In this document: positions 146 through 12,739 of the stretch, piece after piece
How the letters are laid out: each line of letters starts with the position of its first letter
Position numbering within the stretch: the stretch's first letter is position 1
Assembly: GCA_001818775.1 (NCBI GenBank)
Contig: MHKD01000019.1
Location: 47,802-60,763 of the forward strand
Source: Candidatus Kerfeldbacteria bacterium RIFCSPHIGHO2_12_FULL_48_17
GTDB taxonomy: Bacteria; Patescibacteriota; Patescibacteriia; HO2-48-17
Direction: 5' to 3'
DNA length: 12,962 bases
Position numbers and translations under genes: made by a program
Notes under the pieces: generated by a model
The model's input: only the letters and a program-made list of their open reading frames with translations
Databases searched by the model: none
What the model was told of the DNA's origin: nothing

Positions 146-2311
146 ATGTTTCAAGAATATGGAGTACTCAATTACTATGACCACATGAATTTGGAGAGAA
201 CGGGAAAGCAGGTCGTGGGACCGGTACAGGGGCAAATGGAAGTGCTCACCGATCAGGTTTCGGGAATGACGGGTGATATGCAGACGGCAATGGAAAATGC
301 CAATGAGCAGATGAGGGATGCGATTTCGGACGTGATTGCTTCACAGGAACGGATTGCTGCTCAGAGACAGGAAATGTTTTTTGAGTTAACCAACATGTTG
401 GGGAGCATACAGGATTCTATAATTGGTGGTTTCACTGACATGCTGTCAGTCCTCGATGACATGAATGACAGTTTAGAGCAGCTCCTGGAAATTGCGCGGA
501 CACCCAATGAAACGGCTGCGATGGAACATTTCGTTCATGCAAGGGACAATTTTGACAAAAGTTTATATCCTGAAGCAATGAAGCGGATTGATTTTGCTAT
601 TTTTGGTGATGGCAGGCGTTGTTCCGGTCATCCGGAAGAATGGCGGTTTCACTACCTTCGTGGGCTTCTGTTTTCCGATCCTTTGGCTGGGTATAACGAT
701 AGTAAGCAGGCCGAAGCGTGTTTTCTGACGGCGGCTCGTTATGCCAAAGCGGATGATTACACAGAGGATGCGGGTATGCATATGCTGTCAGCTTCCTGGA
801 TGTCGTATGTCCAAAAAGATTTTATTCGCTCGGCGCAACAATGCAGCGAGGCTTTACAGTTGATCCCGGGATTTGCTGAGGCGTTGTATCATCAGGCAAA
901 ATTGCAGATAGAGATGGAGAAAGTTCCAGACGCTTTGCAATCGCTTGAAGCCTTGGTGAATGTATCCCCAAAGCATTTTCTCAAAGTCGCTGCTGATTCG
1001 GTGTTTGCTGCGAAATCGCTGGAACTCACGCCGTTTTTTGTGAAACTTCGCGACGAGAAAAAGCGGGTGCTGCGGAAAATAGTTTCAGAGGATCTTACTG
1101 AGGCGGAACTGTGGTTGAGTCGTGGTGTCGAAAATGATGCGAAACTTCAATACGTTATTTTTCTGCGTAATTTTTTGGAATGCACACCGAATGATCTGGT
1201 CACGTTGTTTGAACAGGAAGGAGACGTTGTTTTTTATGTTGTAGAATTAAGTAAAGACAACACTTGCTGGAAACGAGCATGGGAAATTTTGAAAATTTTT
1301 GAAGAGAAGATTCCAAATTTTACCAGGCAGCAGAAGGAAGGGTTGTTTTTAGAATTTTATGGCTGGTCTGACTTACCCGGCATGGTTCATCGGTTTTGCG
1401 AGGCGATGGTGAATTGTGGTATTAAGGAGATTGCATTGAGGGCTGAGAAGATTCGGGATACTGACTGGTGCACTCAAGAAATGCAACGTCTTATTTCTGA
1501 TCGGGAAAAAAGGCTAGAACAAAAGAGAAAGGAGCAAGAAAGACAGAAAAAAGAGGCGAATTTCGGAATCTTTGCTTGGTATTATAATTCTTTTTCCAAG
1601 AAAAATCATATTGTAGGAGATATAATTTACTCCTACAACAGCTGGTTTTTTTGGCTGCTGTTTTTCGACATGTTTTTGTGGGCCCTCTCTTTGGTAGCTC
1701 TGTGGTTTTACCTGCCATTTGTTAGTGTGGGATGGCGCATAGGTGCATATCTGACAGGTTTCGCCTGGGTTCTGTTTAATGCTATTTTATGGACCATTTT
1801 TCTTTTCAGTTTTGTTGTTGTTCGGAAAACTGAAGTGGCGCTCTTTAGAATTGGTGGAGTTGTTCAGAAATGGCCGGGTTTGGGGGAATCAATTTTTTGG
1901 AAAGCGCCAGGTGTTGGGGTGATAATCATCTCTGTGGCGCCAGTGGATTATATTTTTCCCAGTATCGAAGTTGAAGTTTCGTCGGGGAAAAAATTATGGT
2001 TCGATCAAGTCCACGTTACCAGCACTGTTTGCAAGCAGCGGGCTTATCTTCAAATGGAGATAGGTGACGAAGACCCGGTAAAATTTGCTCAAAAGCGGAT
2101 TGCTCTAAAGCTTCATGACGCAATCCAGAAATGGATTGCGGATAACATAAGGGAAAATGACGGGCAAAAAAATGAGGATTACAGGCAGATCCAACTGTGT
2201 AGAGAGGAAGTAAAGCTGGCTATGGAACAGGCAGCTGCTGCAGAGCTACGGAGCTATGGATTCGATATTCGGGTTATTTCACCAGGGAATATGCGCCTAT
2301 CTCCAAAGTAA
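146..2311 (+). CDS. Multidomain membrane protein: N-terminal soluble TPR-like/helical region, basic coiled-coil, 2-3 TM helices, C-terminal divergent SPFH/band-7-like domain
   Basis: ATG at 146 follows GAAGGAG (131-137) with an 8-nt spacer, opening a 721-aa ORF. Residues ~1-470 are hydrophilic and helical with TPR-like stretches (EALQLIPGFAEALYHQAKLQIEMEKVPDALQSLEALVNVSPKHF). A basic coiled coil DREKRLEQKRKEQERQKKE precedes the hydrophobic segments WFFWLLFFDMFLWALSLVALWFYLPF and AYLTGFAWVLFNAILWTIFLFSFVVV. The C-terminal ~170 aa align to the SPFH cores of the two downstream paralogs (GGVVQKW..GESIFW..VDYIFPSIEVEV..YLQME.., ending SYGFDIRVISPGNMRL versus QYGVLARVISLGDITL in the 4719 gene). Confidence 0.8.
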   Translation: MFQEYGVLNYYDHMNLERTGKQVVGPVQGQMEVLTDQVSGMTGDMQTAMENANEQMRDAISDVIASQERIAAQRQEMFFELTNMLGSIQDSIIGGFTDMLSVLDDMNDSLEQLLEIARTPNETAAMEHFVHARDNFDKSLYPEAMKRIDFAIFGDGRRCSGHPEEWRFHYLRGLLFSDPLAGYNDSKQAEACFLTAARYAKADDYTEDAGMHMLSASWMSYVQKDFIRSAQQCSEALQLIPGFAEALYHQAKLQIEMEKVPDALQSLEALVNVSPKHFLKVAADSVFAAKSLELTPFFVKLRDEKKRVLRKIVSEDLTEAELWLSRGVENDAKLQYVIFLRNFLECTPNDLVTLFEQEGDVVFYVVELSKDNTCWKRAWEILKIFEEKIPNFTRQQKEGLFLEFYGWSDLPGMVHRFCEAMVNCGIKEIALRAEKIRDTDWCTQEMQRLISDREKRLEQKRKEQERQKKEANFGIFAWYYNSFSKKNHIVGDIIYSYNSWFFWLLFFDMFLWALSLVALWFYLPFVSVGWRIGAYLTGFAWVLFNAILWTIFLFSFVVVRKTEVALFRIGGVVQKWPGLGESIFWKAPGVGVIIISVAPVDYIFPSIEVEVSSGKKLWFDQVHVTSTVCKQRAYLQMEIGDEDPVKFAQKRIALKLHDAIQKWIADNIRENDGQKNEDYRQIQLCREEVKLAMEQAAAAELRSYGFDIRVISPGNMRLSPK

Positions 2312-2359
2312 GCCATTTTTTAGACACGTATCCCAAATTTGAAAGTTGTTAAATTTACC

Positions 2360-2438
2360 CTAAGGAGGTGATTTTTCACTGCACATTCAAGAAACCTGAC
2401 GTATGTTTTATAACATATACTCAGGTTTTTTGTTTTTT
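2360..2438 (+). repeat. Copy A (degenerate) of a thrice-repeated operon-end element: perfect SD TAAGGAGGTGATT + intrinsic terminator
   Basis: TAAGGAGGTGATT at 2361-2373 is a 12-nt complement of the 16S 3' end. It is followed by cactgcacattcaagaaaCCTGAC...TCAGGttttttg, which shares flanks with the copies at 4462-4541 and 6969-7049. The ATG of the mini-ORF seen in those copies is absent here (cactGcac versus cactTATGcac). Confidence 0.6.
2395..2438 (+). terminator. Rho-independent terminator after the 721-aa gene
   Basis: Hairpin CCTGAC-GTATGTT-ttat-AACATATAC-TCAGG (2395-2425) followed by TTTTTTGTTTTTTG (2426-2439). Confidence 0.65.
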
Positions 2439-2482
2439 GTAAGCGGCTTTATATGCACGTAAGCAGCGGTAGCGAGGGTTTG

Positions 2483-2511
2483 TTGACTTTCTTGTGGATT
2501 TAGTATCTAAT
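2483..2511 (+). promoter_or_regulatory. Sigma-70-like promoter for the short-SPFH operon (TTGACT-17 nt-TCTAAT), paralogous to the promoter at 4573-4601
   Basis: TTGACT at 2483-2488 and TCTAAT at 2506-2511 are separated by a 17-nt spacer. The spacer-to-leader region aligns without gaps to 4573-4629, and the predicted TSS near 2518 starts the conserved leader cactttattggggtaattgtgcc (2517-2539). Confidence 0.5.
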
Positions 2512-2582
2512 GTAGGCACTTTATTGGGGTAATTGTGCCTTTAATAAAGCGTACTTCGACAATACAGAAAAAGGAGAAAGAC

Positions 2583-3227
2583 ATGAACAGAAGCTTTGCA
2601 CGCGGAGCGTTGATAACAGCCTTAATTTTCATTCCGGTGTTGGTGCTGGCTGCACTATTTATGGAGCAGTATTGGGCGGGTTCGGAATTTTTTCCGGGTT
2701 TGGACTTGGTTTTGTCCGGTTTGGCGTCGTTGGCCGTTCTCTTTGTCATTTTTGGTATAGTGGTGGTGCCCATCAATCATGTCGGCGTTATCGTTCTCAT
2801 GGGTCAGATTCAGAATTCGACACCCCTTCGTGAGGGTATATGCTGGGTACCGTTTTGGGCACAGGTGTTTTTTGAGTCGTTGGCGCCCAGAAAGGTGCAA
2901 ATTGACCCCATTGAATTCGAGTTTGAGGGGTCATTTTCCAAGCTTTCAAATATCCGCGTAGAGGTCAATGTGGATCCGGAGCGCGCGTTTCAATATTTCC
3001 GGCTTGATGAGAAAATTCGCGCCGAGCAGATAGATGCAAGGGTCTACAGTATTGCAAAGAAGACGCTGCAGCGCTTTATTGATGGTACTGATCGCCCCGG
3101 AACAAAAAGAAGAACCGTTCGGGAATTTAAGGCTGCCAGTGAAGACGCCAAGACTCGGCTTAATGAGGCTTTGAATGACGAGCTTTACGAGCATGGTGTC
3201 CAGGCTTGCGTTGTTTCTTTGGAGTAG
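2583..3227 (+). CDS. Short SPFH/band-7 (HflKC/flotillin-like) membrane protein, truncated relative to its paralog
   Basis: ATG 2583 follows AAGGAG (2571-2576) with a 6-nt spacer. The ORF track's GTG at 2535 has no SD. A short basic N-terminus is followed by two hydrophobic segments (ALITALIFIPVLVLAALF, LVLSGLASLAVLFVIFGIVVV). The core VPINHVGVIVLMGQIQN..EGICWVPFWAQV..IDPIEFEF..IRVEVNVDP..YFRLDE matches the band-7 pattern and aligns with the 4719 gene. It ends at HGVQACVVSLE*, where the paralog continues YGVLARVISLGDITLPDRIKQAIE. Confidence 0.75.
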   Translation: MNRSFARGALITALIFIPVLVLAALFMEQYWAGSEFFPGLDLVLSGLASLAVLFVIFGIVVVPINHVGVIVLMGQIQNSTPLREGICWVPFWAQVFFESLAPRKVQIDPIEFEFEGSFSKLSNIRVEVNVDPERAFQYFRLDEKIRAEQIDARVYSIAKKTLQRFIDGTDRPGTKRRTVREFKAASEDAKTRLNEALNDELYEHGVQACVVSLE

Positions 3228-3271
3228 CGTAGAACTTGATCATGTAACGGGAAAAAAGAAAGGAAATAGTT

Positions 3272-3892
3272 ATGTCGCAAAACAAATGGAAATATGGTGA
3301 TTTGCTCTTTGGGCAAGGGTGGTTGTCGGTCCTGGTGTGGGTGGTGTTGGTCCCTGTTTTTTGTTTTTTAGTCTCGGTTGCGATGGGGTATTTAGAGTAC
3401 CGCGATTGGGTCGCCACCAACCGTTTCCCGGAACCTGTTAAGGCGCCGATTGACCCAGCAGTGGTTGCTGAGCAGGTAAAGGAGGAAGCTAAACAAAGAG
3501 CCGAAAATCTTAAAAAAATCGAATCGCTGATCAAGCAGGCAGCGGCTTACGAGCGGCAGGCTAAGTACGCTGCAGGGGAAGAAAAGTTCTTCCTTTACCC
3601 TATTGTATGGAAGCATTGCCAGGGGCCTGTCTTAGGACCTGGTCTTTGGCATGTCATTATTTATAAGTGGGTATCAGACCGGCCATTCAAATTTGATCTT
3701 ACCAAGGGCCCGGCTGATGGCGAGGCTGAAGAATACACCAACTTCACCCTCGACACTATCGTAAAACCGGATGCCGGTCGCCAGATAGGTATTCCAGGCG
3801 GTTTTAGCGAGCCGGACTCGTTGTTTTTTTATCATTTAACAAATAAGGCACCGGGTCCATCTTGGGTGAGCGTGCCGCCGCAATGTCAATGA
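3272..3892 (+). CDS. Small membrane-anchored protein, paralog 1 of a conserved SPFH-associated family of unknown function
   Basis: ATG 3272 follows AAAGAAAGGAAA. It lies 44 nt downstream of the SPFH gene. The N-terminus MSQNKWKYGDLLFGQGWLSVLVWVVLVPVFCFLVSVAMGYL is a single TM anchor, followed by a charged helical linker. The C-terminal ~110 aa carry EEKFFLYPIVWKHCQGPVLGPGLWHVIIYKWV ... SLFFYHL..PGPSWVSVPPQCQ, shared with the ORFs at 3928 and 6352. Confidence 0.8.
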   Translation: MSQNKWKYGDLLFGQGWLSVLVWVVLVPVFCFLVSVAMGYLEYRDWVATNRFPEPVKAPIDPAVVAEQVKEEAKQRAENLKKIESLIKQAAAYERQAKYAAGEEKFFLYPIVWKHCQGPVLGPGLWHVIIYKWVSDRPFKFDLTKGPADGEAEEYTNFTLDTIVKPDAGRQIGIPGGFSEPDSLFFYHLTNKAPGPSWVSVPPQCQ

Positions 3893-3927
3893 GGGGTTTG
3901 TCAAAAAAAAATAGAAAGGAAAGTAGT

Positions 3928-4455
3928 ATGCCACAGAAGAAATGGAAGTATAGTGATTTGCTGTTTGGGCAAAGGTGGTTGTCGGTGGTGGCTTGGGTTG
4001 CGCTGGTGGTTTTTGGTTATTTGTTCCTGAGCCTGGTTGGCTCCTACATGATAAGTCGTGAAAACCGGGAAAAATCTGGCGAGATGGCAGCGACCATTGA
4101 TTCCAGTCAGAGGCAGAGGTTCGCGCCTGGCGAAGAGAAGTTTTTTAACTTCCCCTTTAGGTGGTATTCCTGTACTGGTGCCCATTTTGGGCCAGGCAGG
4201 TGGCATGTTGCCATCTATAAGTGGGTTTCGGCAGAGTCGATTTCTGCCTTCGAGCCTAAGGTATCAAAGAAAACCCATCTCAAATTGTATGTCGACAATA
4301 AGTTTCCACTCCTTGTCGACAACCGGGACGGGGTACTGCATCATATCCCACTTGGGCATGATGACCCAGATTCTTATTTTCTTTATGAAATAAAGAATTT
4401 GGGAAAGGACCCTGGTTGGGTTCAGCTCCCCCGGTCATGTCTCAAGGGGGATTAG
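3928..4455 (+). CDS. Small membrane-anchored protein, paralog 2 of the SPFH-associated family
   Basis: ATG 3928 follows GAAAGGAAAG (3914-3923). The TTG extension to 3862 in the ORF track has no SD and overlaps the previous stop. The N-terminus MPQKKWKYSDLLFGQRWLSVVAWVALVVFGYLFLSLVGSYM is a TM anchor. The C-terminus carries GEEKFFNFPFRWYSCTGAHFGPGRWHVAIYKWV ... SYFLYEIKNLGKDPGWVQLPRSC. Confidence 0.78.
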   Translation: MPQKKWKYSDLLFGQRWLSVVAWVALVVFGYLFLSLVGSYMISRENREKSGEMAATIDSSQRQRFAPGEEKFFNFPFRWYSCTGAHFGPGRWHVAIYKWVSAESISAFEPKVSKKTHLKLYVDNKFPLLVDNRDGVLHHIPLGHDDPDSYFLYEIKNLGKDPGWVQLPRSCLKGD

Positions 4456-4461
4456 CAAAAA

Positions 4462-4541
4462 CAAACAGAAAGGAGGTGATTCACTTATGCACATTTAAAA
4501 AAATCTGACAGCGTTTTACGAAGCGTCTGCTCAGATTTTTT
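4462..4541 (+). repeat. Copy B of the operon-end element: AAAGGAGGTGATT SD + mini-ORF ATG-CAC-ATT-TAA + intrinsic terminator
   Basis: caaacagaaAGGAGGTGAttcacttATGcacattTAAaaaaatctgacagcgttttacgaagcgtctgctcagattttttg. Roughly 95% identical to 6969-7049. SD at 4471-4479, with a 7-nt spacer to ATG 4487-4489 and stop at 4496-4498. Confidence 0.7.
4503..4541 (+). terminator. Rho-independent terminator ending the short-SPFH/partner operon
   Basis: Imperfect hairpin TCTGACAGCG-ttttacgaa-GCGTCTGCTCAGA followed by TTTTTTG (4535-4541). Confidence 0.65.
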
Positions 4542-4572
4542 GTTTATTTTTAGCCTTTTTTGGCGTTTTGTA

Positions 4573-4601
4573 TTGACTTTTTCTTTATTTTTCTGTATAA
4601 T
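4573..4601 (+). promoter_or_regulatory. Sigma-70-like promoter for the flotillin-like operon (TTGACT-17 nt-TATAAT)
   Basis: TTGACT at 4573-4578 and TATAAT at 4596-4601 (preceded by TG) are separated by a 17-nt spacer. The predicted TSS near 4608 starts the conserved leader cactttgttggggtaattgtgcc (4607-4629), leaving a leader of about 110 nt before ATG 4719. Confidence 0.6.
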
Positions 4602-4718
4602 ATAGCCACTTTGTTGGGGTAATTGTGCCGCAGCAAAGGGTTGTTTGACAACTTAAAATCAATAGAGGCCCACGCCGTGCGGCGGAGGAGCTGAATATAA
4701 AGAAAGGAGATTGATTTT

Positions 4719-6350
4719 ATGATTAAAATTAATCTTCATACAGAAAAGAGGAAGAAAATGAAAAAAAAGAACTCCGCCAAGGCCGAAACCCTGGGAGATT
4801 TTTTAAAGAGACTGTTTTTTGTTCTGCTGTGGGTGACAGGGTCGACGCTGGCTACTGTGCTTGTTTTCCTTCTTGTTAAGAAGGGATTAGTTTTTCTGCC
4901 AGAAGTTTCACTCCAAGATTTTTCGGGTGTCTGGTCTGTTCTGGGGATGGTGGGGCAGGGAGTTGCCTTGATAATTGGTGCCTTTGTTTTATTCGGTATA
5001 AGGCCCATACCCACCAATTATGTGGGGGTCACTACGCTTTTTGGAAAGATTCAAAACCGTGTCCTCCATGAAGGTATCAACTTGGTGTGGTTCTGGTATG
5101 ACTATCAGAAAGCCTCCACGGCGCCTCGGACTGTCAAGCTGGAACCGACGGAGTTTGAGTTTAGGGATGCACCTTCGAAGATTGCGGGGGTGCATATTCA
5201 GGTGCAGGTCAATCCAACTTGTCCGCAGGGTTACTTTCGTCTCACCGAGGAGACGCGGGAGACGGAAGTGGACGGGGCCGTGCGCAGTGTTGTGCAAAAA
5301 GTGCTGCAGAACCTGATTGACAATGCCGGGTCCCAGATGACCGTGGACGAGTTTAAGGGCGTCTCAGATAAAGTCACAAAGGAGCTGAGTAGAACGCTCA
5401 ACTCCCAAATTTCTCAGTATGGCGTCCTGGCGCGTGTTATTTCCCTTGGTGACATAACGTTGCCTGATAGAATCAAACAGGCAATTGAGTCGGTGAAGAC
5501 GCGTGAGAGGATGGCTGTGACTCTCAAGGCGCAGGAGGGTCATATTCGGAAGCTTGTTGAGGAGGGGCTTGATGCCAGGAGGATTCAACCGCCAGTCGAG
5601 GAAACTCCGGACCAGCTGCAAAAGCGGATAATTCCGTTGGTTCTTGAGAATCTTAAGGAGGCTGGGTATTTTCCCCCACTTCAGGAAACCCTAGAGCAGT
5701 TTGAGGCCCGTCTCAAATCTTTGGCATCGCAGCGCTTGAGGAACAGGGGAATTTCCGAGCCAACCAGAGAATCTGCAGAAGACCATAAAAAAAGGTTGGA
5801 AACAGATGTCCTGGCGACTTTGCAGCTGCAGGGTGTTGTGCGGCCCGTGGCTGAAGATCTGGCGACACGGGAAGCTCGTTTGGCCGGAATTGTCCGGGCC
5901 AGTTTTCTCATTTCTTCTACTGAGCCAGTGCCTCCAGCGGTCGCCAGTATTTTTTCTAAAGAAATGCAGACGCTGCGGCAGTTGGAAGAGCAGAAGTTCC
6001 TTGGCTATGCTGCCGCTTTTTCTAAGGAGCTGGAGCGACTTGAGGCTATTGACGCAGCAGTAGCCGACCGTTTTTATTCTGTTTTTGAGGAGGAAGTTGC
6101 GCGTTTGCGCAGTGCCCAGGAAAAGCAGATAAAAGATTTCAATGCCGCTTTTTCTAAGGAGCTGGGGGACCTAAAAGCAGAAGAACGGCGTCGCTATGAT
6201 GACGCCAAAAGAACTTATGATGAGCAGGTTGAGCGCTTGGAGGCTTCGTTCCAGCATGAGCAGGAAGAGGCTACCAAGCAGGAGTTGTATTCCAAAAATC
6301 CAAACTTCCTGTTGGGACTTGACCCCACAGGTAAAAAGAAAGGAAAATAA
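4719..6350 (+). CDS. Flotillin-like SPFH/band-7 membrane protein with long C-terminal coiled-coil carrying three FSKE(L/M) repeats
   Basis: ATG 4719 follows AAAGGAG (4703-4709) with a 9-nt spacer. An alternative ATG at 4758 follows GAGG. The basic N-terminus and hydrophobic segments (LFFVLLWVTGSTLATVLVFLLV, VWSVLGMVGQGVALIIGAFVLFGI) lead into the SPFH core NYVGVTTLFGKIQNRVLHEGINLVWFW..LEPTEFEF..IQVQVNP..YFRLTEE..QYGVLARVISLGDITLPDRIKQAIESVKTRERMA, which resembles HflK/HflC and flotillin. An E/A/R/Q-rich coiled coil follows, with ASIFSKEMQ, AAAFSKELERLEA and NAAFSKELGDLKA repeats. Confidence 0.85.
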   Translation: MIKINLHTEKRKKMKKKNSAKAETLGDFLKRLFFVLLWVTGSTLATVLVFLLVKKGLVFLPEVSLQDFSGVWSVLGMVGQGVALIIGAFVLFGIRPIPTNYVGVTTLFGKIQNRVLHEGINLVWFWYDYQKASTAPRTVKLEPTEFEFRDAPSKIAGVHIQVQVNPTCPQGYFRLTEETRETEVDGAVRSVVQKVLQNLIDNAGSQMTVDEFKGVSDKVTKELSRTLNSQISQYGVLARVISLGDITLPDRIKQAIESVKTRERMAVTLKAQEGHIRKLVEEGLDARRIQPPVEETPDQLQKRIIPLVLENLKEAGYFPPLQETLEQFEARLKSLASQRLRNRGISEPTRESAEDHKKRLETDVLATLQLQGVVRPVAEDLATREARLAGIVRASFLISSTEPVPPAVASIFSKEMQTLRQLEEQKFLGYAAAFSKELERLEAIDAAVADRFYSVFEEEVARLRSAQEKQIKDFNAAFSKELGDLKAEERRRYDDAKRTYDEQVERLEASFQHEQEEATKQELYSKNPNFLLGLDPTGKKKGK

Positions 6351-6351
6351 A

Positions 6352-6954
6352 ATGTATGATCTTTTGTTCAAATCGGGGATTGTGTCGGTGGGGGCGTGGA
6401 TTGCTCTGGTTGTTCTGGTGTATTTGGCCCTCAGTCTGACGGGATCATGTGTAAGGAGTTGCGAGATGCGGGCACAGCAGGACCCGAATACTTCTTATCC
6501 CACTCCTGTCACGACCGAGGAGCAGGTCAAGCGGGCCGAGAAGCTGGCCGCGCACCAGGCGGAAATTCTGAAAACGTTGCCGCAGACTATTGAAGAAGCG
6601 GCATCGTATCCCCGAAGCCAGGATTATCCGGCCCAGGAGAAATTGTTCCTCCTTTACCCCTTCAAGTGGGATCATTGCTGGGGGCCGCTCTTGGGCCCGG
6701 GGGTGTGGCACGTCGTAATTTATAAGTGGAAGGCTGCCGGGTCCCTGCAGATGGAAGATTTGAAGGAAGGGCCCGCTGTTGAAGATTACGAGCTTGTCTC
6801 CAACTTCCGGGTCAACACGGTGGTTGATAAGCGTGAGGGCAAGCAGGTGATTGTACCGGAGGGGTGGAAAGACAAAAACGCTCTTTATTTTTTTCAGCTG
6901 GAGCGCATAAGTGACTCGCTCGGCTGGGTCAGCGTTCCCCCTCAATGCCGCTGA
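6352..6954 (+). CDS. Small membrane-anchored protein, paralog 3 of the SPFH-associated family
   Basis: ATG 6352 follows AAGAAAGGAAA and sits 1 nt after the flotillin-like TAA (6348-6350), which suggests translational coupling. The N-terminus MYDLLFKSGIVSVGAWIALVVLVYLALSLTG is a TM anchor. The C-terminus carries QEKLFLLYPFKWDHCWGPLLGPGVWHVVIYKWK ... ALYFFQLERISDSLGWVSVPPQCR. The ORF-track extension to 6196 lies inside the upstream gene and has no SD. Confidence 0.8.
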   Translation: MYDLLFKSGIVSVGAWIALVVLVYLALSLTGSCVRSCEMRAQQDPNTSYPTPVTTEEQVKRAEKLAAHQAEILKTLPQTIEEAASYPRSQDYPAQEKLFLLYPFKWDHCWGPLLGPGVWHVVIYKWKAAGSLQMEDLKEGPAVEDYELVSNFRVNTVVDKREGKQVIVPEGWKDKNALYFFQLERISDSLGWVSVPPQCR

Positions 6955-6968
6955 GAGAGAGGCAAAAA

Positions 6969-7049
6969 TAAACAGAAAGGAGGTGATTCACTTATGCACA
7001 TTTAAAAAAACCTGACAGCGCTTTACGAAGCGTCTGCTCAGGTTTTTTT
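6969..7049 (+). repeat. Copy C of the operon-end element (SD + MHI mini-ORF + terminator)
   Basis: aaacagaaAGGAGGTGAttcacttATGcacattTAAaaaaacctgacagcgctttacgaagcgtctgctcaggttttttt. SD at 6978-6986, ATG 6994-6996, TAA 7003-7005. Confidence 0.7.
7011..7049 (+). terminator. Rho-independent terminator ending the flotillin-like/partner operon
   Basis: CCTGACAGCGC-tttacgaa-GCGTCTGCTCAGG hairpin followed by TTTTTTT (7043-7049). Confidence 0.65.
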
Positions 7050-7071
7050 ATTCTCAATCGCGCAGAATTTT

Positions 7072-7080
7072 GGTATACTA
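7072..7080 (+). promoter_or_regulatory. Extended -10 promoter (TGgTATACT) for the NHL/FG-GAP gene
   Basis: TGGTATACT at 7072-7080, with a weak -35 TTCTCA at 7051-7056. The ~22-nt leader ATCTACATAATCATTCGCCTTTTTTTCT carries no SD before ATG 7110. Confidence 0.4.
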
Positions 7081-7109
7081 TATCTACATAATCATTCGCC
7101 TTTTTTTCT

Positions 7110-10100
7110 ATGCTCAAAAGATATTTATCGTCAGTCTTCGCGGCGGTCATCATCGGCCTGATCGCGCTGCTGCCCCAGGTCACCCTCGCCACATTTGGCG
7201 ACACCACTACCTACGTCGGTAAAATCATCGGCGGTGACGGCAAGGACAAACTCAGCGCGTACCTCGACCAATCGGCTGATTTTGCCGTTGACAGCTCCGG
7301 TAATTTTTATCTGGCTGACACGCGCAACAACGTCATCCGCAAAATTTCATCGAGCGGCACCGTTTCCACCGTGGCCGGTACGGGTGCGTATGGCGATGTC
7401 ACCGGCAACAAAAGCGACGCTAAATTCGCTGGCCCGGAAGCACTGGCCCTCGACGGCAGCACCATCTTCGTGGCCGACACCGGCAACAACACCATCAAGA
7501 AAATTTCCGGCAGCACCGTCAGTACCCTGGTCAGCTCCGGCCTCAGCGGCCCCAAAGGCCTGTATGCCGACACATCGGCTGACATTCTCTACATCGCCGA
7601 CACCGGCAACAATAAAATCAAGAAAGTCGCTTTTGGAGGCGGCAGCGTCAGCACCGTGGCCAGCGGCCTCAACGCGCCCACCAAATTCACGAAAAATGGC
7701 GGCACCCTTTATGTGAATAACACCGGTGACAGCAAAATCAAATCGGTTGTCATTTCCAGCGGCGCAGTGGCGACTGTGGCCAGTGATTTTCTCGATCTCG
7801 GCGGCATAACGTACCACGAAGGTCACCTCTACAGTGTTGATGGTGATGGTCTGTTTGATTATCTGCAGAGCATTGATCCATCCACCGGTGCCAAATCTTT
7901 GCTGGCTGAAGACGGTTCCATGATTACCCTTAATACTTCTTCACAGGTCCTGGTGTATAACAGTAAGATTTACGTCCTCAACCGCGGCTCGAGCAGTATT
8001 TATAGATTTGACCTTGACGGCTCAAATCCTGTTCATTTTGCTGGCAAAGACCGTTTTGGCAATGATAACGGCACCGGAACCAACGCGCTCATCGGCGCTC
8101 CCAAAGATATCGTCATTTCCGATGATCGCGCCTTTATGTATCTGGCGGAAAACAACAAGATTCGCAAAATCACCCTAGACAGTGGCAAAGTTGAATCACT
8201 CATCGGCAATGCCGTGGATAATTACAAAGAAGGCAGAACCGGTTCGGACGGGCGTTTCAGTGATATCACCTCCATTGCCGTTTCACCGGATGGCGCCACA
8301 CTCTACGTCACTGATCGCAACAACAACCGTGTCCGCGGGATAGATATTGCTGCCAAAATTGATTTTCTTATTTCCGGCGCCGGAGAAATCAATTCCCACG
8401 GTGAATCCGATAACGGCTACCAGGAAGGTACCAAGTGTTTGGCTGAGTTTGACGCTGGTGTTTCCGGTTGCGCGTATTTCAATCGTCCCACGGGTATTGC
8501 GATTTCATCGGATGGGAAGTTTCTCTACGTCACCGATACGGGCAATCACCGCATCCGCCGCGTGCGCGTGAGTGATGGGCAAACGACACTTATCGCCGGT
8601 TCAGGTGCTGCGGGTTTCACCAATGGCGTCGGTTCGGCGGCAAAATTCAATTCACCGTACAGTGTCACCATCGACGCGGCCGGTGATTTCCTGTATGTCG
8701 CTGACAAGGGCAATCACGCCATCCGTAAAATTGACCTGGCAACCCGTGAAGTCACCACCCTTACGGGCACCGGTTCCTTTGGCTATAATGATGCCACCTT
8801 TGATAAGGCGGTGTTTTCTTTCCCCGAGTACATTGAATTCGGTGGCGATGGTCACCTGTATGTTTCGGAAGTCGGCAGTCAGCGTATTCGCCAGCTTGAT
8901 CTGGAAAACGAAGTGACGAAGCTTGTGGCCGGTTCCGGTGATCGTGGTTTTCTGAACGGCAACCGCAGTGATGCGGAGTTTAATAACCCCAAGGGCATGG
9001 CTGTTGATGCGCCGTCAGACACTATTTATGTTACCGATAACCAAAATGATCTTATCCGTAAAATGGACATTGAGGGTGAAGCGCCATTCACCGAACTCTC
9101 ACCGACCGTGACCCGTGTTGATCCCAATACCAAAACCCTCGCTGACCGCGGCGATCAGACAATTCCCATTGATCTGTACGGTTCGAATATTCGTCATGGC
9201 GCCATAGCCTATGTCGGCGCGTTTCAGGCATTGAAAACATATGTCACTGATTATGGCGCGGTGCTGGAGTTGCCGTTTGGCTTGCTTGATCCGGGGCATT
9301 ATGACATTACCGTGAAGAATATCGATTCACAGTCGTACACCTTGCTGAAAGGTTTTCGCGTGACACGGAAAGACGGTGTATTGCCCGGTACCTATTATAA
9401 ATATGATGGGTCGGTGGTTGGTGGCGACGGCGTGGCTCCGTTAAGCGCTAACTTTTTTCCGTATGATTCGGCTCTGCGCGGCGGGTTTAACAGTTCCACG
9501 TGTGATGTGAATAAAGACGGGGTTGATGAAATCATTGTGGGTACGGGTGTGGGTTTTGGTCCACAGGTCAAGGTCTTTACCAAGTCAGGGGATTTGCTGT
9601 TCAGCTTTTTTGGCTTTGCGGAGACGTTACGCGCTGGTGTGCGTACTTCGTGCGGTGACCTTGACAAGGACGGTAAACCGGAAATTGTGGTGACGGCCGG
9701 ACCCGGAGGCAGACCGCATGTGCGTATTTTTGACAACGAAGGCAATCTCAAGCATCCGGGTTGGTTTGCGCTGGATGGAAAGTTCAAGGGCGGAACGTAT
9801 ACCACGATTGGCGATGTGAACGGCGATAAGGTTGGTGATATTATTGTCAGCGCCGGCAAGGGCGGCGGGCCCCACATTACCGTTCACAGGATGGACGGTC
9901 GGTTGCTGGCCACATTCTTTGCCTACAGCAACACATTCCGTGCCGGTATTCAGCCGGTGGCGATGGATTTTGATAATGACGGTCGGGATGAAATTGTGGT
10001 GGTGCCCGATACCGGTACATCGCATGTGCAGACATTCAGCATTCAGCCGAATGATATCAGGTTGTTGAATCCCGGTTTCTTCGCCTTTGGCACGACTGAC

Positions 10101-10364
10101 GCCAATGGTTTCAATATTGCCGGCGGTGACATTGATGGTGACGGCAAAGATGAGATCATTGTGGGTACCGGTCCGAACAATATAGCGCGCGTGCGTGTCT
10201 TTAACAAAGATGGTTCGGTGATACTCAAAGATGAGCAGGTGTTTTCAAGTTCGTATAAGGGGGGAGTGAACGTCTCGGCCGGGGATGTTGATGGGGACGG
10301 TGACGATGACATTATTGTTTTGCCGCGTTCCAGCGGAGTTCCTGATCTGCGGGTTCTGAAGTAA
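7110..10364 (+). CDS. Secreted 1084-aa NHL-repeat beta-propeller / IPT(TIG) / FG-GAP-repeat protein
   Basis: Signal peptide MLKRYLSSVFAAVIIGLIALLPQVTLATFG. At least 8 NHL-type blades (YLADTRNNVIRKI, FVADTGNNTIKKI, YIADTGNNKIKKV, YVTDRNNNRVRGI, YVTDTGNHRIRRV, YVADKGNHAIRKI, YVSEVGSQRIRQL, YVTDNQNDLIRKM). An Ig-like IPT segment (TVTRVDPNTKT...YDITVKNIDSQSYTLLKGFRVT). Six FG-GAP/VCBS repeats (CDVNKDGVDEIIVGTG..PQVKVF, GDLDKDGKPEIVVTAGPGGRPHVRIF, GDVNGDKVGDIIVSAGKGGGPHITVH, MDFDNDGRDEIVVVPDTGTSHVQTF, GDIDGDGKDEIIVGTGPNNIARVRVF, GDVDGDGDDDIIVLPRS). Codon usage is strongly biased toward C-ending codons. Confidence 0.85.
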   Translation: MLKRYLSSVFAAVIIGLIALLPQVTLATFGDTTTYVGKIIGGDGKDKLSAYLDQSADFAVDSSGNFYLADTRNNVIRKISSSGTVSTVAGTGAYGDVTGNKSDAKFAGPEALALDGSTIFVADTGNNTIKKISGSTVSTLVSSGLSGPKGLYADTSADILYIADTGNNKIKKVAFGGGSVSTVASGLNAPTKFTKNGGTLYVNNTGDSKIKSVVISSGAVATVASDFLDLGGITYHEGHLYSVDGDGLFDYLQSIDPSTGAKSLLAEDGSMITLNTSSQVLVYNSKIYVLNRGSSSIYRFDLDGSNPVHFAGKDRFGNDNGTGTNALIGAPKDIVISDDRAFMYLAENNKIRKITLDSGKVESLIGNAVDNYKEGRTGSDGRFSDITSIAVSPDGATLYVTDRNNNRVRGIDIAAKIDFLISGAGEINSHGESDNGYQEGTKCLAEFDAGVSGCAYFNRPTGIAISSDGKFLYVTDTGNHRIRRVRVSDGQTTLIAGSGAAGFTNGVGSAAKFNSPYSVTIDAAGDFLYVADKGNHAIRKIDLATREVTTLTGTGSFGYNDATFDKAVFSFPEYIEFGGDGHLYVSEVGSQRIRQLDLENEVTKLVAGSGDRGFLNGNRSDAEFNNPKGMAVDAPSDTIYVTDNQNDLIRKMDIEGEAPFTELSPTVTRVDPNTKTLADRGDQTIPIDLYGSNIRHGAIAYVGAFQALKTYVTDYGAVLELPFGLLDPGHYDITVKNIDSQSYTLLKGFRVTRKDGVLPGTYYKYDGSVVGGDGVAPLSANFFPYDSALRGGFNSSTCDVNKDGVDEIIVGTGVGFGPQVKVFTKSGDLLFSFFGFAETLRAGVRTSCGDLDKDGKPEIVVTAGPGGRPHVRIFDNEGNLKHPGWFALDGKFKGGTYTTIGDVNGDKVGDIIVSAGKGGGPHITVHRMDGRLLATFFAYSNTFRAGIQPVAMDFDNDGRDEIVVVPDTGTSHVQTFSIQPNDIRLLNPGFFAFGTTDANGFNIAGGDIDGDGKDEIIVGTGPNNIARVRVFNKDGSVILKDEQVFSSSYKGGVNVSAGDVDGDGDDDIIVLPRSSGVPDLRVLK

Positions 10365-10395
10365 TCACTGGCTTACGCGTTTGGCGCGTTTCAAT

Positions 10396-10428
10396 AAAAA
10401 AAACGCCACTTTTTACGGTGGCGTTTTT
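10396..10428. terminator. Bidirectional Rho-independent terminator between convergent genes
   Basis: AAAAAAAACGCCAC-tttttacg-GTGGCGTTTTT has an A-run upstream and a T-run downstream. It serves the + strand NHL gene (stop 10364) and the - strand histone-fold gene (stop 10445). A smaller hairpin ACGCGtttggCGCGT sits at 10369-10383. Confidence 0.7.
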
Positions 10429-10444
10429 ATATCTGGAGAAAGTT

Positions 10445-10621
10445 TTACAAATCCTGGCCCTTGACGGTGGTGCGCTTGTTGCCCTGGGTGCGCTTGCAGG
10501 CATCGTCGAGCACGCCCATCACCTTTTTATTAAGAGCTTCGAGAACCTCGGAAGAAGTTTTGCACTTCTTGGATTTAATATAGGCTTTTACTTTTGAGCC
10601 TACAATTAACAGGTCAGCCAT
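10445..10621 (-). CDS. Bacterial histone-fold protein (HMf-like / DUF1931-type singlet histone), 58 aa, absent from the ORF track
   Basis: Reverse-complement ORF ATG(10619-10621)..TAA(10445-10447). It translates to MADLLIVGSKVKAYIKSKKCKTSSEVLEALNKKVMGVLDDACKRTQGNKRTTVKGQDL. This fits the histone-fold pattern: L-I----I-K, an S-E---L first helix, and the C-terminal A-KR--GNKRTTVKG-D-L matching the A--HAGRKTIKAEDI motif of archaeal HMfB. No SD precedes the ATG. Confidence 0.6.
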   Translation of the reverse strand: MADLLIVGSKVKAYIKSKKCKTSSEVLEALNKKVMGVLDDACKRTQGNKRTTVKGQDL

Positions 10622-10731
10622 GAGTTTCTTATTAATAATTAAGGCTTACAAATCCGCGGGCACTTTTTTCGCGGCACTTTAGGGGGGCAAATGCTCAGAT
10701 TTGTGAGTCTTAGGTCTTAATATATCGGTTT

Positions 10732-11316
10732 TTATTTTTTAACGCAGCGATTGTTTCGGCACAGACAACTGGGTATGGCATCCTTTTCCTGCTGTGTGCA
10801 AATGGCGTTGCACGATACACGGTTTATCTGGCTGTATACTTCTTCATTCAGACAGGAATAGCCGCAGCTGCAGTTGCTGAAAAGGGGCGTGCAGTCAGCG
10901 TCGGTCTCACAGCTGAGGGCGGATGGGGTTTTATTTCCTCCTGTGTCAGTTTGAGTATTTACGTTTTGATTGGCGCTGTTTTCGGTTTCTGTGCCGCTCG
11001 ATGCATCTATACTAGCACCGTTCACGTTTTTTGTTAAGCTGCTCTCGGTCTTTTGCGGGTTGATGGGTTTTTTTGTCGAGATAATGCCGCTCATCACAAT
11101 CACAAGCTCTAAACACAGAAAAACGAAAACAAGAACGAACCCAAGTGCCAGATTGATGGCTTTGGCGTATCTATTTTTATCAGGATTTCCCTGTGCTGTT
11201 TTTTTTCGACCGCGTTTTGTTTTTTTGCCCGTGTTGTTATGGCTTTTTACCATACCTTTTATTTTCGTTGTTATTGTACCATTATATTTCTCCTTGTTCA
11301 ATTTTTTGTTTTCCAT
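10732..11316 (-). CDS. Lysine-rich N-terminus / single-TM / Ser-Thr-Asn-rich linker / 12-cysteine C-terminal domain protein, unknown function
   Basis: 194-aa ORF. The N-terminus (KKTKRGRKKTAQGNPDKNRYAK) is strongly basic, followed by the TM segment AINLALGFVLVFVFLCLELVIVMSGII and a low-complexity linker (TESSLTKNVNGASIDASSGTETENSANQNVNTQTDTGGNKT). The C-terminus is SCETDADCTPLFSNCSCGYSCLNEEVYSQINRVSCNAICTQQEKDAIPSCLCRNNRCVKK. The start is uncertain: M1 overlaps the PduO gene by 35 nt, and an alternative M22 (ATG 11251-11253) does not. No SD precedes either. Confidence 0.55.
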   Translation of the reverse strand: MENKKLNKEKYNGTITTKIKGMVKSHNNTGKKTKRGRKKTAQGNPDKNRYAKAINLALGFVLVFVFLCLELVIVMSGIISTKKPINPQKTESSLTKNVNGASIDASSGTETENSANQNVNTQTDTGGNKTPSALSCETDADCTPLFSNCSCGYSCLNEEVYSQINRVSCNAICTQQEKDAIPSCLCRNNRCVKK

Positions 11317-11851
11317 TCCAGGTATGCTCGGTTTGATTGTAATGCTTGTTGAGTATCCGGGCGAGAATAAAAAACCAATCAGAAAGTCTGTTCATATATT
11401 TGAGGATTTCCGGATCGATTTCTTCCTGTTGATCAACGCTGATGATGCTTCTTTCAGCCCGGCGGCATATGGTGCGGCAGATATGGGCAACGGCGGCTGA
11501 TCGGTCGCCACCCGGCAGGATAAAATGGGCGAGTGGAGGCAGATCGTGTTGCCAGGCATCAATCTCTTGTTCGAGTGTTTGAACATGGTGTGGTTGTATG
11601 TGGGGCGTATGCAGTGGTGAGTCCTTTGGCGTGGCGAGTTCTGCCCCAATAATGAACAGATTTTCTTGCACTGCCATCAGTTTTTTGTTGATGCCATCAT
11701 CATTTATTCTCGAAATAAGAAAACCAATGAACGAATTGAGTTCATCCACTTCACCGTACGCGACCAGGCGCGGATGGTTTTTCCGCACGCGTTGGTTGCC
11801 AAACAATCCCGTTTCACCCTGATCGCCGGTTTTGGTGTAAATTTTTGTCAT
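11282..11851 (-). CDS. PduO-type ATP:cob(I)alamin adenosyltransferase
   Basis: N-terminal MTKIYTKTGDQGETGLFGNQRVRKNHPRLVAYGEVDELNSFIGFL is the signature motif of the PduO/MMAB/EutT-like adenosyltransferase family (KIYTKTGDxGxT...R..K...R..AYG..DELNS). The 189-aa length fits the family. Confidence 0.85.
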   Translation of the reverse strand: MTKIYTKTGDQGETGLFGNQRVRKNHPRLVAYGEVDELNSFIGFLISRINDDGINKKLMAVQENLFIIGAELATPKDSPLHTPHIQPHHVQTLEQEIDAWQHDLPPLAHFILPGGDRSAAVAHICRTICRRAERSIISVDQQEEIDPEILKYMNRLSDWFFILARILNKHYNQTEHTWNGKQKIEQGEI

Positions 11852-11884
11852 ATGCCGTATATTAGACAGTTACTTAGTACATGT

Positions 11885-12739
11885 TCATAATGTCTTGACG
11901 GTTTCCATTGTCGGTGTTGCCCCATCTTTCACCGTCGCCGCGTCTGCTGCGGCTGCCGTTCGGTTTTCCGTGTCTTTTTTCTTGGCCATGGCGTAGTGTA
12001 TGATGGCGTGCACCGCCTGGGCGCCGGAAACAAGTCTTGGCCCGGGACGGTTCAAAAGCGAGTCATCAATGCGGTAGACATTTTCCGCGCGCACCGCTCG
12101 CATGTGGTTCCAATTTTTTCTTTCCTTTATACTCCCGACATCACTCCGGTTGGCACGACCGCACCAATGGGCCACGATGATTTCCGGATTGAACACGAGT
12201 ATCTGTTGATCACTCACTTTTTTGCTTGGCTGTCCGGGTTCCACGAATTTTGTTCTCCCACCAGCGAGGCTGATGATTTCCGGTACCCAATTCCCGCCGG
12301 CCATGAAAGGTTTTGACCATTCCTCGGCGTACACACTCGGTCGTTCCTCGTGATTTTTCGAACAGACACTGATTTTCTCGAATTCCGTTTTCATGGAATC
12401 TGTCAGGGCTTGCGCTTCCGTTTGCTTACCGACGAGTTCGCCGAGCTCAATTATGGATGTGAATACATCCGTCAATGTTTTTGCCTGAAAATGGTAGATC
12501 TCCCCGCGGCCGTTATAGTTGTGGAGTTCTTTGGGGAAATAATACGAGGTGAGGATGATGTCAGGTTCAAGCGCGGCGATTTTGGCCGTGTCGGTCCCAG
12601 TCCAGGTGCCGATTTTTTCTTTGGCGGCGACTCCGGCGGGAAAGTCGCACAGTTTCGTCACGGCAATCGTTTCTGCCTGACAGCCAAGCGCAAAAAGGAT
12701 TTCCGTGTTACTTGGGGCCAGTGAAACGATTTTCAGCAT
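11885..12739 (-). CDS. BtuF-like (class III periplasmic-binding-protein fold) cobalamin/siderophore-type substrate-binding protein, no signal peptide
   Basis: MLKIVSLAPSNTEILFALG....IVAVT..CDFP...........W....D...IAALEPDIIL parallels E. coli BtuF (RVITLSPANTELAFAAG...GVS.YSDYP...W.G...E.I.ALKPDLVI). It sits next to the PduO-type adenosyltransferase. The start lies 21 nt after the upstream gene's stop, and in-frame stops upstream rule out an N-terminal leader peptide. Confidence 0.7.
   Translation of the reverse strand: MLKIVSLAPSNTEILFALGCQAETIAVTKLCDFPAGVAAKEKIGTWTGTDTAKIAALEPDIILTSYYFPKELHNYNGRGEIYHFQAKTLTDVFTSIIELGELVGKQTEAQALTDSMKTEFEKISVCSKNHEERPSVYAEEWSKPFMAGGNWVPEIISLAGGRTKFVEPGQPSKKVSDQQILVFNPEIIVAHWCGRANRSDVGSIKERKNWNHMRAVRAENVYRIDDSLLNRPGPRLVSGAQAVHAIIHYAMAKKKDTENRTAAAADAATVKDGATPTMETVKTL

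Follow-up and report, generated by a model that had tools for sequence, protein, structure and literature searches.

The window analysed here is a stretch of 12,962 nucleotides in which a cluster of genes is arranged in three units, each closed by a copy of the same short element. The first unit holds a 721-aa TPR/TM/SPFH-like gene followed by copy A; the second holds a promoter, the SPFH-214, 206-aa, and 188-aa genes, and then copy B; the third holds a promoter, the SPFH-530 gene, a 200-aa gene, and copy C. Beyond copy C lie a further promoter and a 1084-aa NHL/FG-GAP gene. This gene order supports the claim of an earlier note on this DNA that the elements lie at operon ends. The paralogous proteins of the cluster are only 30–42% identical to each other, and searches with PADLOC and NCBIfam returned no significant family for the cluster proteins. 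Protein searches placed the small-paralog family in only five clusters and found one real relative of the 721-aa protein, while the search with the NHL protein was dominated by repeat proteins; viral contigs held no relative of the small paralogs. Within the SPFH-530 gene there is an exact 23-nt direct repeat, TGCCGCTTTTTCTAAGGAGCTGG, at 6011–6033 and 6143–6165, which encodes a repeated AAFSKEL peptide in the coiled C-terminal half of the protein.

The surroundings of the cluster were extended to 32.6 kb by merging two loci of the ENA metagenome contig ERZ27254756 k141_174261, which is identical to the window. The proteins of the window are identical to those of a metagenome assembly of Candidatus Kerfeldbacteria, which belongs to the CPR/Patescibacteria. 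Among the 32 genes called in these 32.6 kb (window 146–12739 plus L046/L043), SD sequences of at least 6 nt are found only on genes of the SPFH cluster, namely the 721-aa, SPFH-214, 206-aa, and 200-aa genes and, weakly, SPFH-530. All of the housekeeping neighbours have A/T-rich, SD-less starts, and the NHL gene also starts without an SD, both here and in the related lineage L040. The genome is SD-poor, with one SD-led gene island. Cluster genes and their relatives carry AGAAAGGA, AGGAGGT, or GAGGTGA at the correct spacing, and more distant Patescibacteria show mixed SD use that includes AGGAGGT and GAGGTGA. In one of these more distant genomes (L050, 4516–7163), genes for DsbA, LGT, DsbA, and NHL are adjacent; judged by that order, the 721-aa gene and both SPFH operons (~146–7050) seem to have been inserted in the window between lgt and the NHL gene. 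The G + C content of the cluster is slightly lower, at ~0.47 versus 0.50. A promoter and 5′-UTR module is repeated before both SPFH operons (2483–2539 and 4573–4629), with TTGACT, 17 nt, and TAT(C)TAAT followed by a GGCAC/GCCAC...GTGCC hairpin. The two modules are 77% identical overall and 91% identical in the last 32 nt, and the divergence of the coding sequences is far larger.

The three copies of the element in the window are as follows:

2351–2440, plus strand: copy A, the degenerate element, after the 721-aa gene (nhmmer E = 8.8e-19)
4455–4541, plus strand: copy B, after operon 1; its first base is the last base of the TAG stop codon (4453–4455)
6962–7049, plus strand: copy C, after operon 2 and upstream of the promoter of the NHL/FG-GAP gene

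In a repeat alignment, copies B (4455–4541) and C (6962–7048) are identical at 83 of 87 positions (95%), and the 2351–2394 portion of copy A aligns to both at 68–70%. A profile HMM built from the copies recovered all three in the 32.6 kb at E = 9e-19 to 1e-27. That the window holds three copies, two of them ~95% identical and one degenerate, had been noticed before; the alignment and the profile E-values bear this out, and the likeness is not due to chance. Three of the four sites that differ between B and C fall in the stem of a hairpin described below, and pairing is preserved at all three. Each element begins where the last cistron ends, at its stop codon or only a few bases beyond it, and the whole SD/start/stop/terminator unit is placed 31–39 nt past that codon.

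The first part of this unit consists of an SD of unusual length and a very short reading frame:

2362–2372, plus strand: SD of copy A, AAGGAGGTGAT, an 11-nt anti-SD complement with a predicted duplex energy of −19.3 kcal/mol
2379–2390, plus strand: dead mini-ORF of copy A, CTG-CAC-ATT-CAA, with start and stop mutated and frame and spacing kept
4467–4480, plus strand: super-SD of copy B, AGAAAGGAGGTGAT, 14 nt, predicted duplex energy −28 kcal/mol
4487–4498, plus strand: mini-ORF of copy B, ATG-CAC-ATT-TAA, as read from the sequence
6974–6987, plus strand: super-SD of copy C, AGAAAGGAGGTGAT, 14 nt, predicted duplex energy −28 kcal/mol, with 14 of 14 bases kept in L040
6994–7005, plus strand: mini-ORF of copy C, ATG-CAC-ATT-TAA, whose counterpart in L040 is ATG-TTC-ATT-TAA

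The 11-nt sequence AAGGAGGTGAT occurs exactly at 2362, 4470, and 6977 only, and allowing at most one mismatch there are six matches against 0.2 expected from shuffles. Scored against a canonical Bacillus-type 16S tail, which may not be the host's own, the genic SDs have predicted duplex energies of −9 to −11 kcal/mol, compared with −28 for copies B and C and −19 for copy A. These energies agree with the original observation that the SD is stronger than any genic one, and no other anti-SD complement in the 32.6 kb region comes close to those of the elements in strength. Reading them as SDs requires a 16S tail of ...AUCACCUCCUUUCU. For about half of the 16S genes of Parcubacteria, no CCTCCT motif could be detected (PMC9297842).

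In copies B and C and in L040, the SD is followed by 6 nt and ATG-NNN-ATT-TAA, and the TAA lies 5 nt from the G + C stem. The mini-ORF had been described correctly in two copies, with a spacing of 7 nt that becomes 6 nt when counted from the 14-nt SD; likewise, copy A does lack the ATG (CTG), a description that was incomplete since the TAA has gone as well (CAA). The proposal of a functional tripeptide is unlikely to hold because codon 2 switches from His to Phe in L040. Small structures also occur around these sequences. A small hairpin (AGGUG-AUU-CACUU) covers the 3′ part of the SD at 4474–4486 in copy B and 6981–6993 in copy C; L040 retains it, with one G-C pair replaced by G-U and a change in the loop, and in copy A (2367–2380) it appears in a shifted register as GGUGA-UUUU-UCACU. 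In copy C only, a perfect 10-bp inverted repeat, GCATAAGTGA / TCACTTATGC (6905–6914 and 6988–6997; rough chance expectation ~0.006), has one arm in the coding region of the 200-aa gene and the other in the spacer and ATG of the mini-ORF. Pairing of the two arms could mask the start of that mini-ORF unless the upstream gene is under translation.

The second part of the unit is a hairpin with a T-run:

2395–2438, plus strand: terminator of copy A, CCTGA...TCAGG with interior GTATGTT/AACATAT, then T6-G-T6, from folding
4497–4541, plus strand: terminator of copy B, with an A-tract, a stem at 4504–4535, and a T-run at 4536–4541; U:A stands in place of the C:G of copy C
7004–7049, plus strand: terminator of copy C, with an A-tract, a stem at 7011–7042, and T7 at 7043–7049; 43 of 46 positions are kept in L040

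Hairpin and T-run fold in all three copies (shuffle z-scores of −4.5, −2.2, and −4.5), with core stems of −10.5 to −15.5 kcal/mol that begin 13–58 nt after the stop codons and are followed by T6–T7. By sequence criteria, the element qualifies as an intrinsic (Rho-independent) terminator. The structure had been reported as a CCTGAC...TCAG hairpin with a T-run in every copy; it is indeed present in every copy, but the letters differ in B, which has TCTGAC...CTCAGA against CCTGAC...CTCAGG. The stem was also said to be upheld by compensatory change, and this is confirmed by the comparison of B with C, which shows an exchange of C:G for U:A and one G-U wobble. Among the sequences compared (B, C, L040, A, and L042), only a few of which are independent, the L040 stem has one G-U wobble plus loop changes, and copy A and its counterpart in L042 have a different stem interior in which pairing is retained. 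The base pairs were analysed from individual folds, since MAFFT offset copy A by one column.

Full and partial folds that included 120–150 nt of upstream RNA retained the terminator and revealed no antiterminator or other competitor of the 5′ arm. Predicted promoters sit 3′ of the T-run (TTGACT-17-TATAAT at 4573–4601, with others from 2483 and at 7051–7079), and no conserved promoter was found upstream of the SD. Rfam 15 contains no family that reaches its gathering score, the best matches being 17–25 bits against cut-offs of 54–60. Upstream of distant NHL homologues in Patescibacteria (L049, L050, L051), the terminators are without an SD and without a mini-ORF. Elsewhere in the window, a strong bidirectional terminator, AAAAACGCCAC...GTGGCGTTTTT, at 10399–10428 separates the NHL gene from a 58-aa gene that converges on it; this terminator too is without an SD or mini-ORF, and has a weak, meaningless Rfam match to STnc320.

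The lineage L040 allows the conservation of the element to be assessed. Its gene order is SPFH, a 206-like gene (58% amino acid identity), the element with the sequence AGAAAGGAGGTGATCTACTTATGTTCATTTAAAAAAACCTGACAGCGCTTTTCAAAGCGTTTGCTCAGGTTTTTTT, and the NHL gene (87% amino acid identity). Copy C and the L040 element are identical at 77 of 87 positions (88.5%), against 52 of 87 for four-fold sites in the NHL gene next to it (p = 2e-5 by Fisher's test). For the segment from SD to stop, the figure is 28 of 33 (p = 0.01 against the same four-fold sites). All 17 bases of the SD and ATG are kept, versus changes at 4 of the 12 bases of the spacer and codons 2–3 (p = 0.02), and the chance of 17 out of 17 at a neutral identity of 0.6 is 1.6e-4. 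The TAA is unchanged too, a conservation that is confounded with that of the terminator A-tract, and changes in this segment and the hairpin are confined to the spacer, codon 2, and the loop. With L040 as the single independent comparison lineage, the alignment demonstrates purifying selection on the SD and the hairpin. The A-type counterpart in L042, TAAGGATGA...CCTGATGTATG...TCAGG-T8, keeps CCTGA-GTATG...TCAGG; in both it and copy A, the SD and mini-ORF are degenerate and the terminator is kept. The loss of ATG and TAA from copy A and the decayed SD in L042 indicate that at least one copy is unconstrained as a mini-ORF. The feature itself is real and conserved.

The origin of the element can be traced within the cluster. 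An ATG-anchored alignment matches its 5′ half to the initiation regions of the small paralogs, in which an A-rich tract is followed by AGAAAGGA:

3247–3274, plus strand: initiation region of the 206-aa small paralog, made up of an A-rich tract, AGAAAGGA, 7 nt, and ATG; the element's 5′ half is homologous to it
3903–3930, plus strand: the same initiation motif inside the 5′ end of the 188-aa gene, with an alternative start at 3928, from the repeat alignment
6327–6354, plus strand: initiation region of the 200-aa small paralog, from the repeat alignment

The distance from AGAAAGGA to the ATG is 7 nt in the genes and 12 nt in the element, where five extra bases, GGTGA, lengthen the SD to 14 nt. 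In a related locus, L041, the sequence GCCAAAAACAAATAGAAAGGAAAATAGTTATG, which matches GCAAAAACAAACAGAAAGGA of copy B, comes after the orthologous 188-like gene and leads into a real 206-like gene; at the corresponding place in the window, GCAAAAACAAACAGAAAGGAGGTGATTCACTTATGCACATTTAA and the terminator come after the 188-aa gene. With a 206-like gene behind this sequence in one locus and a terminator in the other, the SD and ATG can be identified as what is left of a paralog gene start. As read from these alignments, the element is a small-paralog gene-start stump joined to an intrinsic terminator. Compared with window 3221–4474, L041 (1–1071) carries the small paralogs in reverse order, 188-like and then 206-like, and the chimeric 5′ end of its first gene is 91% identical to the start of the window's 206-aa gene. 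This order and the chimeric end indicate that cassettes recombine at the conserved initiation region and N-terminal codons.

The relationship between copies B and C is a separate matter. They differ at 4 sites, compared with 10 between C and L040, and the paralog operons are older than the L040 split. The closeness of B to C shows recent copying or conversion, and the two are therefore not independent evidence. The earlier note's suggestion that the element travelled with the duplication unit is not supported, given proteins that are 30–42% identical beside elements that are 95% identical.

A profile search of the 32.6 kb found only the three copies, all inside one gene cluster. Scans of 185,579 GTDB species genomes, JGI metagenomes, and IMG/VR used exact conserved-block patterns. 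The pattern AAGGAGGTGATT-N5-9-GCACATT gave 28 matches in GTDB, none of which is the element. Ten of the 28 are Treponema rpsU gene starts (L002, L008, L011–L014, L021, L024, L027, L028), matched through the search pattern only; in termite-gut Treponema, rpsU (S21) starts with GGAAAGGAGGTGATT, 4–7 nt, and TTG-GCG-CAC-ATT, which provides a very strong SD. IMG/VR gave one match, a true gene start, and a second viral pattern gave 0 matches; a tightened pattern applied to JGI metagenomes recovered only the same unrelated gene start and no element. Within the 32.6 kb and, by pattern, the three collections, the element is not a dispersed repeat, which settles for this scope the check for a genome-wide MITE/REP-like repeat that had been proposed. 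Other identities were considered and rejected. Programmed frameshifting at A-AAA-AAC is disfavoured, with a +1 frame that stops after 3 more codons and a −1 frame that is not conserved between B and C. An integron attC site would not fit an element without R′/R″ cores and without an integrase, and for a fragment of 16S rDNA the identity to rRNA ends at 14 nt.

From these features we infer that ribosomes of this organism bind the element, that the mini-ORF is translated, and that termination may be affected. The super-SD would capture a ribosome finishing the last cistron 31–39 nt upstream, or a free 30S subunit. Once captured, the ribosome would initiate at the ATG, and two translocations would bring it to the UAA, which overlaps the A-tract and lies 5 nt from the G + C stem. 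There it would cover or unwind the 5′ arm of the terminator; enclosing the first 4–5 stem bases, it would keep the terminator from forming, and the stem would stay free if the ribosome were held at the AUG. The presence or absence of a ribosome would decide whether the hairpin forms, and with it whether transcription terminates or reads through into the next unit and in what state the 3′ end is left.

That a ribosome-capturing mini-ORF makes termination or 3′-end fate translation-dependent is the reading that we tentatively prefer. A fuller version holds that a gene-start stump was exapted as a 3′-end cis-regulatory module in an SD-poor CPR bacterium, where a ribosome caught by the super-SD on leaving the last cistron and parked by the 3-codon ORF on the 5′ arm of the terminator couples termination, read-through into the next paralogous operon, or 3′-end stability to translation; this is possible, if doubtful. 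In favour of coupling, besides the anatomy, the origin from an initiation region, the conservation in L040, and the compensatory and wobble changes in the stem, the SD is strengthened, not decayed, relative to genic initiation regions (−28 versus ~−10 kcal/mol), and there are precedents that suggest, by analogy, interplay of ribosome and terminator on very short ORFs (mccA and vmlR). Against it count the lack of an alternative antiterminator fold, the dead mini-ORF of copy A, and the SD-less starts of most genes here together with the assumption of a canonical tail. The downstream units would not depend on read-through for their expression, as each has its own predicted promoter on the far side of the terminator.

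A serious rival, though on balance an unlikely one, is that the elements are ordinary operon-end terminators that still carry the ribosome-binding site and start codon of a small-paralog gene since deleted. The SD and mini-ORF would then be inert, and the likeness of B and C would reflect recent copying or gene conversion. The homology of the 5′ half to an initiation region is what a vestige would show, and the paralog cassettes are clearly reshuffled by recombination (the L041 order and chimeric 5′ end). Concerted evolution, with 4 differences between B and C versus 10 between C and L040, the decay of copy A and its L042 counterpart, and the similar homogenization of other short regulatory modules between units fit as well. 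A decaying stump, however, should weaken, and here the SD is longer and ~18 kcal/mol stronger than functional genic SDs. All 14 of its bases are kept across a split over which four-fold sites are only 60% identical, and the substitutions in the spacer, codon 2, and loop are those expected for a working SD, start codon, and hairpin. The element would be a ribosome–terminator module if functional, and a gene-start vestige if not.

A role in stabilizing the 3′ end is rather improbable. A ribosome or 30S subunit parked on the super-SD would shield the AU-rich, single-stranded stretch before the hairpin from endonucleases and, after 5′-to-3′ decay, may leave a stable ribosome-bound 3′ fragment, with translation of the mini-ORF being incidental. 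The SD is the best-conserved part of the element and the sole part retained in copy A, and −28 kcal/mol suggests retention of the subunit over efficient ribosome clearance. There are also relevant precedents, as ribosome binding gives the short mccA RNA exceptional stability (PMC4231749) and, on hbs mRNA, ribosomes that initiate at a strong SD act as a barrier to RNase J1 (PMC5737220). Known SD stabilizers are found at 5′ ends, however, where they protect downstream RNA, and here only the terminator is downstream; moreover, on reaching the UAA, a ribosome would break the A:U pairs at the foot of the hairpin and leave the 3′ tail exposed.

It is very unlikely that an RNA of ~85 nt, made up of the SD and terminator, acts as an anti-SD decoy or a 3′UTR-derived sRNA. 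Such an RNA would compete for the 16S tail or for a CsrA-like GGA binder, and would tune the translation of the few SD-led genes, which are the cluster's own. The restriction of SD-led genes to the cluster among the 32 genes in 32.6 kb, the strength of the elements as anti-SD complements in the region, and a csrA gene (PF02599) on a related Patescibacteria contig with a gene for an NHL homologue (L051 1779–1967) are compatible with this idea. It is purely speculative. Neither a promoter nor a processing site can be made out, Rfam has no matching family, and three copies could hardly titrate the ribosome pool.

That the element is a small mobile element (MITE/REP-like) or a recombination site is highly improbable. 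Its homology boundaries are sharp, its flanks, one A-rich and one T-rich, are similar to weak terminal inverted repeats (GCAAAAACAAAC ... GTTTATTTTTAGC for copy B), and the whole cluster looks inserted relative to L050, but many copies in unrelated contexts would be expected, and those found are 3 copies in one cluster in 32.6 kb, with none by pattern in GTDB, JGI, or IMG/VR. Target-site duplications are absent at the boundaries of B and C, where the flanks are of low complexity, and no transposase or integrase lies nearby.

A conserved peptide on the minus strand (M-C/N-I-S-x-S-P-P-F...), with the SD being the antisense of TCA-CCT-CCT-TTC, is scarcely credible: a minus-strand ATG (AATGTGC or AATGAAC) exists in A, B, C, and L040, even where the plus-strand ATG of A is lost, and its T-rich context resembles the SD-less gene starts of the genome, but neither the length (8, 19, 19, and 12 codons for A, B, C, and L040) nor the C-terminus is conserved, third codon positions are conserved as much as first and second, the ORF would lie directly downstream of a minus-strand terminator and antisense to the upstream gene, and coincidence alone would have to account for the exact 14-nt match to the 16S tail. 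The near-palindrome ATGCACAT (2382–2388, 4490–4496, and 6997–7003, minus strand) yields this ATG and was judged incidental.

If translation-dependent termination or 3′-end fate does operate here, coupling of ribosome and terminator would extend beyond 5′ leaders to operon ends, and the ribosome-binding site of a deleted gene would have been recruited and sharpened for regulation. It would also be among the very few hints on the control of gene expression in CPR bacteria, in this case one with a handful of SD-led genes. CPR bacteria cannot be grown in pure culture. Even a mere vestige would be a record of cassette-like shuffling in a CPR gene island whose short regulatory modules evolve in concert.

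Several known systems share features with the element. Like an ordinary Rho-independent terminator, it has a G + C stem and a T-run after the last stop codon, with compensatory changes in the stem; we know of no ordinary terminator with a 14-nt anti-SD complement and a start codon ahead of it. The lambda bar minigenes read AUG AUA UAA, and the mini-ORF of the element also ends in Ile-stop. Start-stop and minimal ORFs, as mapped in E. coli by Ribo-RET (10.1101/520783), are similarly SD-led, too short for a useful product, and presumed to be regulatory. Unlike the element, which has two sense codons between start and stop and lies in a 3′ UTR by a terminator, start-stop ORFs are sited inside a gene or in a 5′ UTR.

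In the microcin C operon of E. coli, ribosome binding to the short mccA ORF sets termination and stabilizes the RNA (PMC4231749). The resemblance lies in a very short SD-led ORF directly before an intrinsic terminator inside a gene cluster. The mccA arrangement differs in that it has its own promoter and a 7-codon ORF encoding a used peptide, and in that upstream RNA antagonizes the terminator and the ribosome restores termination (PMC4231749). The element, by comparison, has three codons, is placed in the 3′ UTR after the last cistron, and has no antagonizing fold that could be found; the promoter of its own and the terminator-attenuating upstream RNA that mark mccA are both lacking.

Leader attenuators provide a further comparison. 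The vmlR attenuator of B. subtilis contains a predicted three-codon uORF (PMC9226507), and vmlR and bmrB-bmrCD (PMC4191407) share with the element the order of SD, mini-ORF of few codons, and terminator. In these leaders, the position of the ribosome on the mini-ORF decides whether the terminator forms (PMC9226507; PMC4191407). They differ in being 5′ leaders downstream of a promoter, with alternative antiterminator folds and control of resistance genes. The element has the SD-led ORF before a terminator, and lacks the 5′-leader location and the antiterminator. Direct occlusion of the terminator by a ribosome would need no antiterminator fold.

The cry3A transcript of B. thuringiensis carries a STAB-SD stabilizer. 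In STAB-SD and other strong-SD stabilizers (cry3A; hbs, PMC5737220), as perhaps in the element, an extended SD serves ribosome or 30S binding and not protein synthesis, and the SD of copy A is likewise without a start codon. These stabilizers lie in the 5′ UTR and guard downstream RNA from 5′-to-3′ decay, whereas the extended SD of the element lies in the 3′ UTR, at the 3′ end. Lacking defining features of each, and a member of none, the element is by analogy best described as one that would work like these ribosome–terminator systems.
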